Below are positions 25,101-34,100 of a stretch of DNA of 64,000 nt, piece after piece (positions within the stretch are counted from its first letter, which is position 1; each line of letters starts with the position of its first letter). The stretch lies in assembly GCF_058153355.1 (NCBI RefSeq), contig NZ_CM177019.1. One strand, written 5' to 3'. A program made the position numbers.

Positions 25101-28100
25101 TAATGTTCCTGCAACTAATGTACTGATTGAAGGCAGTATTGATAACGATCGCGTTACGCTGACTAATCTGGGTGCCGACATCGCCCGCGGGACATTAACC
25201 GGAAACGCTCAGCGTAACGCCGATGGCAGCTGGCAGGTGGAAAATCTGCGGCTGGCGGATATCCGTCTACAAAGCGAAAAATCGCTAACCGACTTCTTTG
25301 CGCCATTACGCTCTGTCCCGTCGTTGCAGATTGGTCGCCTGGAAGTCATTGACGCTCGTCTGCAAGGTCCGGACTGGGCGGTGACCGACCTCGATCTCAG
25401 CTTGCGCAACATGACCTTCAGTAAAGATGACTGGCAGACACAGGAAGGCAAACTGTCGATGAACGCCAGCGAGTTCATTTATGGTTCGCTGCATTTATTT
25501 GACCCGATTATAAACGCGGAATTTTCCCCGCAGGGCGTAGCACTGCGCCAGTTCACCAGTCGCTGGGAAGGGGGCATGGTCAGAACGTCAGGGAACTGGT
25601 TGCGTGACGGGAAAATGTTGATCCTTGATGATGCGGCAATTGCCGGACTGGAATATACCTTGCCAAAAAACTGGCAACAGTTGTGGATGGAAACGACACC
25701 CGGTTGGTTAAACAGCCTGCAACTGAAGAGATTTAGCGCCAGCCGCAATCTGATCATTGATATCGACCCTGACTTCCCGTGGCAGCTCACCGCGCTCGAT
25801 GGTTACGGTGCCAATCTGACGCTGGTTACCGATCATAAATGGGGCGTCTGGAGTGGCTCGGCGAATCTGAATGCCGCCGCCGCAACGTTTAATCGTGTTG
25901 ATGTCCGTCGTCCGTCGCTGGCGCTAACTGCCAACAGCAGCACGGTGAATATCAGCGAACTGAGTGCATTTACTGAAAAAGGCATTCTGGAAGCCACCGC
26001 CAGTGTTTCACAAACGCCACAACGTCAGACCCATATCAGCCTGAATGGACGCGGTGTGCCGGTGAATATTTTGCAACAGTGGGGATGGCCTGAACTACCG
26101 TTGACTGGCGACGGCAATATTCAGCTTGCCGCCAGTGGCGATATTCAGGTCAATGTCCCGCTGAAACCTACGGTTAGCGGGCAATTGCATGCCGTGAATG
26201 CCGCAAAGCAGCAAGTGACTCAAACCATGAATGCGGGCGTAGTTTCCAGTGGTGAAGTTACGTCGACGGAGCCGGTGCAGTAAAAATAAGGACGCTAGCG
26301 GATATCAGCGCTAGCGTTCCCCGTTATTAGCGCAAAATTCCATACTCACTGCACAATAACCATTTCACCGGTTCATCTTCTTCTATCGCCGGAAAACGTC
26401 CTCCCGGCTCAAGAAAATAATTATCGTGTTGGTCATCATTTACCATCGAAATTTCCCAGCCGAGAACAAACGCTTTTTCCGCCCAGAAGCGATGATACAG
26501 ACGCGGCGGCAGGCAAATGCCCTGCCCCGGCTTTAGCACCAGCGTTTCACCAGGTTTCATGGTACGCCGCTGACCATCAACACTCACGGTAATGACTCGT
26601 TGATCATCACAGAGATTGGCTTCGTTGGCCCAGGCCAACTGCATGCATAAGTCTCCACCGCCCCGATTGAGGATATCTTCCATTTTGTGGGTGTGAAAAT
26701 GCCAGGGAGTCTGCTGATCTTGTTGGATCTGCAACATTTTCTCAGCATACGGTTTTGGATATGCCGCCGACCCCAGCGCGCCGTTGCGCATCGTTAGCAG
26801 TGTTAGTCCCGTTTGGTTGAAATCACCACGACCAAAATCGGTGATATCCCAACCGAGCTGTAAGTCGACTACTTCTTGCCAGTTATCCCGTTCCCGCTGC
26901 AGCCAGTCATCCACCGTAAAATAGGCGAACTCTGGCAAACAAACGCGGAAGGTCTGCGCAATGGCATGTGCTTTATCAATAACATAATTAATTTGTGAGC
27001 GTTTCATTGGCTTCTCCGTTGCGCATAGCAAGCCAGGCAGCGCCACGCATTCCGCTACTGTCGCCGTGCTGCGCTTTTACAATGGGAGTGGTGAATTGAT
27101 CGGTGAAAACCAGTGGAGCGACTTCTGCGTTAGATCGGTGATAAGCAGTTCCACATTCGAAAGCCCGCCGCCGATCACAATCACGCCAGGGTCAACAACG
27201 TTAACGATGGTTGCCAGCGTGCGGGCAAGCTGTTGGCGAAAACGTGCCACCTGCTGCATGGCACAAGCATCACCACGTTGTGCCAGGGTGACAATCGCCG
27301 CAGGAGTGAGCAAGTTACCAGTCATCTGTTGATAGCGTTCACTAAAACCGCTGCCGGAAACAAACGACTCCACGCAGTTGTGTTTGCCGCAATAGCAACT
27401 GACTGATGGACCATCTTCCTGCTCCGTATAGCCTGGCAACGTGATATGACCGCATTCGGCAGCATTTCCCCAGGCCCCTATAAACGGTCGTTGCTTGATG
27501 GCAATGCCACCGCCGCAGCCCGTGCCAAGCGTAATACCAAATACCACGTCATAATCTTGCCCGGCACCGTCGCAAGCTTCTGATAGCGCGAAACAGTTAC
27601 CATCATTGGCTATCACCACCGGTTGCCCAAGCAATTGCTGCAAATCAGCCTGTAACGCATGACCGTTAATCACCTGAATATTCGCATTTTTAATCAGGCC
27701 AGTGAGTGGCGAGATACTGCCGGGTAAGGCGATCCCTGTCAGCATCGGTCGTTGAACGTCCCGCCTAATCTGCTCGATAAGCGCCACAACGCATGAGACA
27801 AATTGTTGATATGTCGACTTTTGCGTCGGGCAGCGGTAACGGCGAATCTCCCAGCCATGCGCATCCATGACGACGGCGGCGATTTTGGTCCCACCAATAT
27901 CCAACCCCAGATAGTGCATATCTCGTTCCTTGTTGCGTAAAAGGCGGGTCACCCCGCCCTTCTGGGTTAGTACAGTGATGCTTTACCGAGCGAACCGAAC
28001 AGTTTCATTTTGTGGCGAATGACTTCCCGCGCCGCGTTAATCGCATCCGGATAGATGACGTTCGGGTCCCACCAGCTCTCTTTAGCGAGAATTTCACGCA

Positions 28101-31100: not shown

Positions 31101-34100
31101 ATGGTATGGCCCAGAGCTTTTGCTCCTTTGATTAACTTTTCACGAGCAATATAGGTATGAGCAATACCCGCCGTACAGGCGGCAACACAGACAATATTCA
31201 TGACATACTCTCTGTTATTTAGCAGACATCGGATTGTGCATACTGACTAAAGAGATCAATGATTTTTTGCGGACTCGTCTCAACTAACAATTGTTCTATG
31301 ATGTCATCATCCGCCAGCGCGCCCGCGACCTGGGAAAGTAAACGGATATGGGTGGTATTTTGATCTTCAAGACGTACCGCAAATAAAATAATACAGCGCA
31401 CGCTACTGCCATCCAGCGTTTCCCAGGGAATATCCTGCCGGGTACGGCCAATTGCCAGCGTAGTATTAATCACAGCTGAAGATTTACCATGCGGGATCGC
31501 AATATGATTTTCAAAACCAGTCGAGCCTTCCGCTTCGCGCTGCCAGACATCTTTAATAAAGGTTTCCCGACAATCGATCGCACCATCTTTTTTGAGAAGA
31601 TTAGTTAATTCTTCAATCGCCTCCGCTTTATTCGTCGCTTGCATATCTAAAATAACGCGATTCGTATTCAGGATTTTTGTTATGTCCATTCGTCATACCT
31701 CATAAAATTCTGACATTAAATTTTAACGACCCGAGACGTCGCATGATGTAATTTTTCCGTAATCACCATTTCAGTGCCCCGCTTAATATCGGCATCATTA
31801 AAAAAAGCGGTAACATAAGCGACCGGCATAGTGACTGTAGGCAAATTAATGGTCGAAATAATCAGTTCGATATTGTCAGGCAAAACCTGTGATAAATTCG
31901 CTGCTGAAATAACATCAACAATCGTCCATTCAGGAAATGCTCGTAGAATACGGCTTTTCAGTAGATGCGAAGTTCCGATTCCGGTTGAACAGACCAGTAA
32001 TACACGTTTACGGGCAATTTGCCGCTCCATCGCAGCCTGAAAATGAACGGTCAGGTAACCCACTTCATCCTCGCTCACTGCATTCTCACCCCAGGTTTTA
32101 AATACCTGATTCACCACATATTGCGTCAACCGCCAGACATCCGCTAATTCTGCTTTAATATCTTCCAGCAATGGATTACGGATATGAATGCGATAATTTA
32201 AACGGTTAATCAGCGGCTTAATATGAACCAACAAGCCATCATATAATGCGCTGTCTTCACTAAAATCGCAGTCCACGATGTCACTGAATACCGTAATTAA
32301 ACGCCAGGTAATCAGACGCGCTTCATTGCTGGCCTGCATATGTGAAATAATGCTAACATCTTTTTGTCCATCAATCGCCACACCTGATGAAATGATATAT
32401 TGATAAATAAACCAGACTTCATCATCGGGCAATGTATGTGCAATTCGTTGTTCTATCTTATGAATCATCTGACTGGCAACATTAAAGATATTTTCATCAT
32501 ATTGCCTGGTTTGATCTTCTTCTCTTGATAACGCATTCCCGTGCGTGTTGCGATACATCATAATAAGGATGTGAGTAAAAATGTTAACGTAATAAGGTTC
32601 TCCCAAAGACCAACTTAATTCATTTTCCATATCCAGTAACAATGACTGGACAAATAACACTTCTTCATCTCCAAAATAATGGACTAATGCTTTATAGCTT
32701 CCGGGATCCAGACGTGAATACACGACACCTTGCGGCTCATTATGGTTAATAATGCCGTTAATCAGTAATGCCATTGCCTGTCGGACTTGCCCTTCACTAC
32801 CTTCAATATGCGTACCACTTGGGCTGCGGATCAACGATAACCCCAACGGCGCAAGCCAGGACTCAATTACTCTCAGGTCATTAACAATAGAGGCTCCGCT
32901 GATAAAGTAGCGTTCTGACAATTTACTGATCGACGTTTCATTCGGTGTTTCACTTAATAACTGCGACGCTATTTTAACGCGCCTGGCATTATTCATTACA
33001 CCATCAATCTCTTCACATTCTGCCACCAACAAATGATCAAGATGCAGCAAATCAGCAATATTCTCCGCGCTTAACATCACACCCGCGCCAGCACGCTTCT
33101 CAACATTTATTCTCCATTGCCCCAGCCATTGCTCAAGTAAACGTAAATCACGTTGAATGGTTTTTTCCGAAACATTTAAATAGCCGGCAATCGTAACAAT
33201 AGTCGTATATTCTCTTCGTGGTAGAAGGAATCGTAATAATCTGTTTTGTCGCGAGGTAATCATTTGCATTTTTTACCCTTATCACAGATTAAGAAGCCCC
33301 ATGAGGAAGAGCTTCAGTTGCCATCTCTGAGGGTAAATATAAAGCAGAATAATTTCACAACAATACTAAAATCTGTCCGTAATCCGGACAGTGATAAAAC
33401 AAAGCAAGGCGGTTAAGGGATATTTTTCAGCACAGATCACATTTTCGCGATGAATAATCGTGATCATGCTCGCAAATACGATGGAAGAAATATTTATTAC
33501 CAGATGTGAGATTATTTACCGGATACGACACAAAACCATTCGTATCCGGCATTCTTCAATAGATTACAACGTAATTGTCAGCGCATTCCCTTGAGGCGTC
33601 ACCACCAGCCCCTGCTCACTTTCAGCCTGCGAACCGCCTTGCAGACCATTTACTTTCACAACATTGCGCAAGCACAGCGTCCAGTTCTTCGCCACGCCCG
33701 CACCATTCACAGTAATTGTGTTGCCAGTACGCGCCGCTTTCAGGGTGAAAAGAACGGAACCATCGGCAGCGGGCACTTCACAGATGGCTTCATGCCCGTC
33801 TTGCAGATTAAAGAGCTGGAATGCCGTGCCTTCGTGCCACGCGTAATCGGGACGTTGCTCGTTGTTGCCCAGCGCCAGTAGGGTGTTATCACGCACATAA
33901 ACGGGCAGACTCAGGAAGCCGTGCTGCTGTTTATGCCAGCGACTACCATCGAGTTCATCGTTGTGCCACAGGTGTGTCCAGCGACCTTCCGGCAAGTAGA
34001 ACTGCACATCGCCCGATTCAGTGAACACTGGAGCAACCATCACGTTGTCGCCTAACATGTATTGACGGTCAAGGTAATCACAAGCCGGATCGTCCAGAAA

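Follow-up and report, generated by a model that had tools for sequence, protein, structure and literature searches.

The closest described counterpart of the gene cluster analyzed here is the frz operon of extraintestinal pathogenic Escherichia coli (ExPEC). The 2026 genome paper on the avian strain BEN2908 lists, as genomic region 27 'yicH..yicI', an frz operon of 7,227 bp and credits its description to Rouquet et al. 2009, J Bacteriol 191:4427 (PMC12928451). According to secondary sources, frz is transcribed as a single operon and is enriched in virulent avian strains; its deletion makes the bacteria less fit in late stationary phase when oxygen is restricted, it promotes fitness in serum and in the gut, and it biases the type 1 fimbriae promoter toward the ON orientation, the deletion favoring OFF. 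It already serves as a marker in the virulence typing of ExPEC and avian pathogenic E. coli (APEC), so that its mere rediscovery adds nothing. The abstract of Rouquet and collaborators is said to name the frz products as a PRD/Mga-type activator, three subunits of a fructose-family phosphotransferase system (PTS), two class II aldolases, a ROK kinase and a cupin. We studied a stretch of 64,000 nucleotides from contig NZ_CM177019.1 (NCBI RefSeq assembly GCF_058153355.1), called the window below, and its positions 26284-33563 are this already published operon.

The identification stands because the published frz diagnostic primers (PMC6238794) match the window exactly at 32845-32864 (minus strand) and 32022-32041 (plus strand), both inside frzR, because these sites span 843 bp, which is the size of the published amplicon, and because the location is again yicH..yicI. 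The window thus shares with BEN2908 the locus, the gene set and the primer sites, with 7,280 bp between the flanking genes (from the yicH stop at 26283 to the yicI stop at 33564) for the 7,227 bp reported; it differs in coming from a divergent Escherichia lineage and in carrying a private frameshift in its ROK gene. Eight co-directional minus-strand open reading frames (ORFs) fill positions 26327-33269, with spacings of 10 to 80 bases, while in K-12 MG1655 the gap between yicH and yicI is 52 bp and the cluster is absent. The initial annotation had correctly given the content, order and co-direction of the eight genes and their position at a junction that is empty in K-12; NCBIfam and Pfam support the families. 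The cluster is not an unrecognized one, as the primers, the amplicon size and the locus show; a match to a fully characterized pathway, which the initial annotation named as a possible refutation, was not found in the literature searched. The features are as follows.

24574..26283, plus strand: yicH, AsmA-family protein, left flank; aligns to the annotated yicH of the closest genome (L001) and of K-12
26292..26317, minus strand: terminator-like hairpin with T-run, in the 43-bp gap between the last frz gene and yicH
26327..27007, minus strand: cupin-type sugar isomerase, D-lyxose/D-mannose isomerase family, 226 aa
27077..27919, minus strand: ROK-family sugar kinase, frameshifted
27967..28827, minus strand: aldolase-2, class II ketose-bisphosphate aldolase family, canonical type, 286 aa
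28908..29759, minus strand: aldolase-1, divergent class II aldolase paralogue, 283 aa
29771..30862, minus strand: PTS EIIC, fructose family, 363 aa
30887..31201, minus strand: PTS EIIB, fructose family, 104 aa
31219..31689, minus strand: PTS EIIA, fructose/mannitol type, 156 aa
31716..33269, minus strand: frzR, PRD-containing transcriptional activator, 517 aa
33002..33011, plus strand: the 10-mer CATCAATCTC inside frzR, which survives at the start of the K-12-type spacer and lies at the deletion junction of strain HS-02
33270..33518, minus strand: non-coding region upstream of frzR, presumed from its position to hold promoter and leader
33519..33549, minus strand: hairpin CCGGATACGA...TCGTATCCGG directly downstream of the yicI stop, with a related hairpin in the K-12 spacer
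33564..35882, minus strand: yicI, alpha-xylosidase, right flank; lies upstream of frz and is read in the same direction

This analysis established directly the identity of the locus, its gene families and domain architecture, and its distribution and synteny. With high confidence we hold an overall reading in which the cluster is the known accessory frz operon, would work through the mechanism proposed below and probably has its ancestral place between yicH and yicI. The comparison between bacteria also narrows the candidates for the substrate, through a pattern of an invariant PTS with two aldolases and an optional isomerase, ROK kinase and mannose-6-phosphate isomerase.

The transport proteins were assigned by comparing NCBIfam profile scores with the curated cut-offs. 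EIIA (TIGR00848, 127 bits against 103.5), EIIB (TIGR00829, 100 against 76.85) and EIIC (TIGR01427, 312 against 157.55) all score above the cut-offs of the fructose family, and none of the three reaches a substrate-specific equivalog cut-off in NCBIfam. The N-terminal CTAGIAHT motif of EIIB contains a Cys and the AIPHG motif of EIIA a His, which we take to be the phosphorylation sites. The best-known relative is the fructose system FruBKA of E. coli, which shares fructose-family EIIA, EIIB and EIIC (the frz EIIC scores 299 bits against the FruA model); however, the Frz components remain below the FruA equivalog cut-offs, and Frz has two aldolases of its own and a ROK kinase in place of the PfkB-type 1-phosphofructokinase. 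Control differs as well, with a PRD activator for Frz and Cra for FruBKA.

FrzR contains, by Pfam, the domains HTH_11, Mga HTH, PRD, PRD and PTS_IIB (EIIB-like), and the same Pfam comparison found no RNA-binding CAT domain. Two helix-turn-helix (HTH) domains, two PRDs and an EIIB-like domain without CAT therefore make it an activator of the Mga/MtlR/LicR type. The RefSeq name, which would make it a BglG-type antiterminator, was rejected on the same two features, the pair of HTH domains and the missing CAT domain. With activators of the Mga/MtlR/LicR/ManR type FrzR shares the two N-terminal HTH domains, the two PRDs, the EIIB-like domain and the coupling to a fructose-family PTS, but it has no C-terminal EIIA domain. 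We also observed that frzR and the EIIA and EIIB genes (30887-33269) have 41-44% G+C, with 34-42% at third codon positions, and the five other frz genes (26327-30862) 50-56%. Salmonella and Klebsiella show the same step, which in Pantoea is much weaker; an old foreign origin of the frz core would be compatible with it.

A scan of the frz region for promoters and terminators returned counts at or below chance, and the promoter scan found no significant consensus promoter in the region upstream of frzR (33270-33518). The hairpin at 26292..26317 has a 9-bp stem with six G-C pairs, followed by CCTTATTTTT, and is called terminator-like on account of its position.

The two aldolases are 33% identical and fit the known families unequally. 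Aldolase-2 passes the curated cut-offs (NF006042, 525 bits against 405; TIGR00167, 259 against 215.6) and matches PDB 1RV8 at an E-value of 5e-58. Aldolase-1 falls below every NCBIfam cut-off (best score 210 bits against 343; TIGR00167, 197 against 215.6); it matches AgaY (PDB 1GVF) at 1e-40, and its orthologues, which occur across Enterobacterales, carry PF01116. Active class II aldolases are expected to present Asp-His, His and His motifs at their metal site, and LDHG, GTAHG and LHGGS motifs are conserved in both families across the six loci compared (see below). Aldolase-2 has in addition a conserved ...(V/I)EGG loop containing a Glu, and an SSDMK segment; a catalytic Glu carried by a mobile loop is known from E. 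coli FbaA.

That one operon should hold two aldolase paralogues had been regarded as an oddity of this locus, but the pair was present in every locus examined, and it is an ancient pair and an invariant part of the frz core. A comparable arrangement is found in the pathways for galactitol and N-acetylgalactosamine with their tagatose-bisphosphate aldolases GatYZ and KbaYZ, in which a PTS likewise goes together with a class II ketose-bisphosphate aldolase and a further subunit that resembles an aldolase. In contrast with these pathways, the second subunit of frz is a true PF01116 paralogue and not a member of the GatZ family, the PTS is of another family, and frz has no PfkB kinase. One could assign the frz aldolases the same division of labor, aldolase-2 performing the chemistry and aldolase-1 stabilizing it or setting its specificity, as GatZ does for GatY or KbaZ for KbaY. 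The two genes are indeed neighbors in all the loci examined, aldolase-1 scores below each of the curated cut-offs, and the absence of the Glu loop together with the altered C-terminal segment is conserved among its orthologues. Yet the Asp-His, His and His motifs that an active metal site should have are present in aldolase-1, and GatZ and KbaZ belong to a different family, which makes the analogy a functional one only. We therefore regard a catalytic and helper pair as a tentative possibility and not as the preferred interpretation.

Comparing gene neighborhoods in six loci, from Salmonella, Klebsiella, Gibbsiella, Pantoea (two loci) and a contig of Priestia megaterium type, separated the constant from the variable genes. 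Salmonella and Klebsiella have the full set of eight and Gibbsiella has seven, without the isomerase; both Pantoea loci, at a different chromosomal site, have only six (regulator, EIIA, EIIB, EIIC and both aldolases), with neither kinase nor isomerase. The Priestia-type contig, of 34.5% G+C, has the six-gene core and three other genes. Its core proteins are similar to those of the window (EIIC 75% identical, EIIB 76%, aldolase-2 70%, aldolase-1 50%). The three additional genes encode a short-type lyxose isomerase of 170 aa that is not significantly similar to the frz isomerase of E. coli, a ROK kinase only 24% identical to that of E. coli frz, and a type I mannose-6-phosphate isomerase. The invariant core, from Pantoea to Priestia megaterium, is thus the regulator, EIIABC and both aldolases, and a free-sugar isomerase and a ROK kinase were recruited at least twice independently, in one case along with an enzyme of mannose metabolism. 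The mannose-6-phosphate isomerase recalls the Bacillus subtilis mannose operon manR-manP-manA; this operon, unlike frz, has no aldolases.

Some observations on related genes belong here. The bepA PTS locus of Enterococcus faecium was considered as the low-G+C homologue, a candidate that was dropped when the contig turned out to resemble Priestia megaterium. On that contig (L008, 1-3470), a second, smaller module lies immediately upstream of the frz-like core; it has a PRD regulator carrying an EIIA domain, a third class II aldolase, which is 53% identical to aldolase-2, and a fructose-family EIIABC fusion. A Salmonella enterica contig (L009, 6598-13438) has a separate cluster, adjoining type IV pilus and plasmid-like genes, with an MFS transporter, a lyxose-type isomerase that shares 61% identity with that of frz, a class II aldolase, a PfkB kinase, a zinc alcohol dehydrogenase and a DeoR regulator; judged from its gene content, this cluster would follow the classic order of isomerase, kinase and aldolase acting on a monophosphate. 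On a further contig, with a 53%-identical isomerase, no sugar genes surround the isomerase gene.

The two accessory enzymes of the window resemble proteins that handle free sugars. The cupin scores 272 bits against NF051472 (D-lyxose/D-mannose isomerase), below the equivalog cut-off of 350, and its orthologues carry Pfam PF07385. It is 49% identical to the D-lyxose isomerase of structure 3KMH, with which its HxH...E and ...H cupin motifs align and which was solved bound to free D-fructose. That enzyme, Z5688 of E. coli O157:H7 (3KMH/3MPB), has the same cupin family, length class and metal and substrate motifs, but the frz isomerase is its paralogue and not its orthologue, as the score below the equivalog cut-off also indicates. 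The intact ROK orthologue of the closest genome (310 aa) best matches the Mak-type fructokinase model NF007108, with 319 bits, below the cut-off of 443. Both the lyxose isomerase family and the ROK kinases act on free, unphosphorylated sugars.

In the window, the ROK gene has a 1-bp deletion at about 27131 relative to this closest genome. The resulting frameshift gives a product of 263 native and 17 out-of-frame residues, so that the last 47 native residues are lost and the ROK fold, with its C-terminal nucleotide-binding segment, is no longer complete as it is in the orthologue. An intact gene would end at 26988, overlapping the start of the isomerase gene, and the deletion removes this overlap. 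None of the 1,605 complete E. coli genomes carrying that stretch has the deletion, which is either a private mutation or a sequencing error. If the sequence is taken at face value, the branch formed by the kinase and the isomerase is probably crippled in this copy. As a separate observation, the window has three private gene-breaking lesions within 13 kb, in xanP, the ROK gene and yicJ: a 2-bp deletion at 23980 splits xanP in two, and a premature stop stands at 36108-36110 of yicJ where other strains have Gly, both being absent from about 5,400 complete E. coli genomes.

From these elements we propose the following mechanism for Frz. FrzR would be a DNA-binding activator, switched by PTS phosphorylation, that turns on the frz operon. 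EIIA, EIIB and EIIC would import and phosphorylate a sugar, which is most likely a ketose that receives its phosphate at C1, and the aldolase pair would cleave the ketose phosphate into dihydroxyacetone phosphate and an aldehyde or aldose; this cleavage would take place either directly on the PTS product or after its phosphorylation by a housekeeping kinase. The isomerase and the ROK kinase would form an accessory side branch converting a free D-manno or D-lyxo aldose into a ketose and then into a sugar 6-phosphate, which would enter glycolysis. The initial annotation had arranged the steps differently, with isomerization and a second phosphorylation following the PTS. That order fits poorly and is less likely, because both enzyme families act on free sugars and because six-gene versions without kinase and isomerase exist.

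The same comparison brings up a more specific version of the chemistry, in which the core cleaves the PTS product without any second kinase and frees a D-manno or D-lyxo aldose, salvaged by the independently recruited isomerase and ROK kinase, together in Priestia with the mannose-6-phosphate isomerase. We consider this version quite unlikely. If it were true, Frz would be a route for an unrecognized substrate, possibly a higher-carbon ketose, common to Enterobacterales and Bacillaceae.

Another way to read the operon starts from its phenotypes: the PTS and FrzR would mainly read an environmental or metabolic signal and pass it on to stress fitness and the type 1 fimbriae switch, while little carbon would flow through the operon's enzymes. 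The published effects have to do with late stationary phase, restricted oxygen, serum and the way the fim promoter is oriented, a growth substrate is not among the reported findings, and FrzR does have PTS-regulated domains. However, the presence of four enzymes whose catalytic and metal motifs are conserved from Enterobacterales to Priestia argues for real chemistry, the Priestia cluster adds mannose-6-phosphate isomerase, a catabolic enzyme, and sensory and catabolic roles are not mutually exclusive. A mainly sensory or regulatory Frz is in our judgment unlikely, and we retain the catabolic mechanism.

Of 5,426 complete E. coli genomes, 1,601 (about 30%) carry the full region at 98-99.5% identity, on the chromosome and with the same eight genes annotated; carriers include Nissle 1917 and the type strain ATCC 11775, and frz is common in extraintestinal pathogenic and phylogroup B2 strains. 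A single contiguous yicH-yicI junction of the K-12 type is present in 3,810 genomes, and five genomes have a partial region, one of which, HS-02, was examined; the three groups together make up nearly all of the collection. Of the 1,611 places that match the frz region, one is on a plasmid and not on a chromosome. The window itself has a best identity to any complete E. coli genome of about 98.4% in the flank and 99.5% in frz. Positions 1-24000 and 33541-41841 show about 98.3-98.5% to the nearest complete E. coli and about 96.2-96.6% to K-12 and most others. These low identities to both the nearest E. coli and K-12 therefore place the window in a divergent Escherichia lineage, which is without a representative in the collection of complete E. 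coli genomes.

The partial genome HS-02 gives a view of how the empty junction may have formed. In this strain, sequence from inside frzR follows immediately on the yicH stop, TAAA|CATCAATCTCTTCAC, and what remains (L011, 2490-3061) is 562 bp of the frzR 5' end, the region upstream of frzR and the yicI hairpin. The K-12 spacer (L002, 2168-2219) begins with the same TAAA and CATCAATCTC as HS-02 and then leads without a break into the hairpin; an O157:H7 strain and two other strains have a matching spacer, save for one base in O157:H7. The 10-mer CATCAATCTC occurs once in the frz region, at 33002-33011, which is the exact start of the HS-02 remnant. Synteny outside E. coli agrees: Klebsiella aerogenes has the order yicJ-yicI-frz(8 genes)-...-yicH, that is, the same slot, with frz proteins 65-94% identical to those of the window and flanking YicI, YicJ and YicH 74-87% identical, and in a Salmonella serovar the frz cluster adjoins yicJ-yicI-yicH, with a yicI fragment upstream of frzR.

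We thus favor a loss of frz in K-12-type lineages, because the frzR relic in their spacer shares the HS-02 junction and because Klebsiella has the same synteny. On this sequence comparison, there is a good likelihood that the K-12-type allele arose by two successive deletions from an frz-carrying ancestor, which is the simplest reading, the slot between yicH and yicI being probably the ancestral place of the cluster. Read in the light of this scar, the presence or absence of frz points to loss in lineages of the A/B1/E type and not to gain by pathogens.

The alternative is that of an island acquired by horizontal transfer, which would have entered a K-12-like yicH-yicI junction and would encode a linear route from the PTS through the isomerase and the ROK kinase to the cleavage of a ketose 1,6-bisphosphate. 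Such a history would agree with the absence of frz from K-12 and 3,810 genomes, with the lower G+C of frzR, EIIA and EIIB relative to their neighbors, and with a core common to a low-G+C Bacillaceae organism at up to 76% identity, which implies transfer across phyla at some point; the linear route would suit aldolases that score best against bisphosphate aldolase models. The locus itself does not look like an island, since its ORFs include no mobility gene (neither integrase nor insertion sequence (IS) element lies in the frz interval), no repeats were found at the boundaries of the interval, and the empty site carries the frzR relic. tRNA-Sec, the sole match of an Rfam search, is 4 kb away with nothing inserted beside it, and no tRNA adjoins frz. 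Klebsiella has frz in the same slot, with a divergence similar to that of the flanking proteins. As for the linear route, the six-gene versions do without kinase and isomerase, and it is established that ROK kinases and lyxose isomerases take unphosphorylated sugars. We judge an island with a linear pathway very unlikely, and the insertion that had been proposed for this junction is most likely the reverse of what happened, given the relic in the K-12 spacer, the shared slot in Klebsiella and the lack of mobility features.

Several points weigh against our overall reading of frz, as a catabolic operon ancestral at its slot, and are best taken together. In aldolase-1 the loop is shorter, a conserved DAPxY without Glu, and the C-terminal segment is different, so that this protein may act as a partner without catalysis of its own. 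The best NCBIfam scores of both aldolases are to models of bisphosphate aldolases, direct cleavage of the PTS product is a step that we infer, and in hosts without a ROK gene a housekeeping enzyme of 1-phosphofructokinase type could supply the second phosphate. A 2021 review files frz under 'unknown/not clearly known functions', and no paper naming its substrate or a homologous characterized pathway was found in the literature searched. Regarding the history, we estimate that about 0.6 chance 10-mer matches are expected between the K-12 spacer and the frz region, and HS-02 could in principle be a microhomology recombinant between an empty and an frz-carrying allele.

Finally, the window contains a second region absent from K-12, of about 17 kb between yicS and nepI (41841-58843). 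It encodes a SicA-like type III secretion chaperone, a regulator of the HilA/EilA family (950 bits) and, on the opposite strand, an ORF of 3,128 aa. Where translocator and needle-tip genes would lie, it has three ORFs, of which two weakly resemble the SipB and SipD types, with scores far under the curated cut-offs, while no family matches the third. We presume this region to resemble the eip/eilA/air locus of enteroaggregative E. coli.

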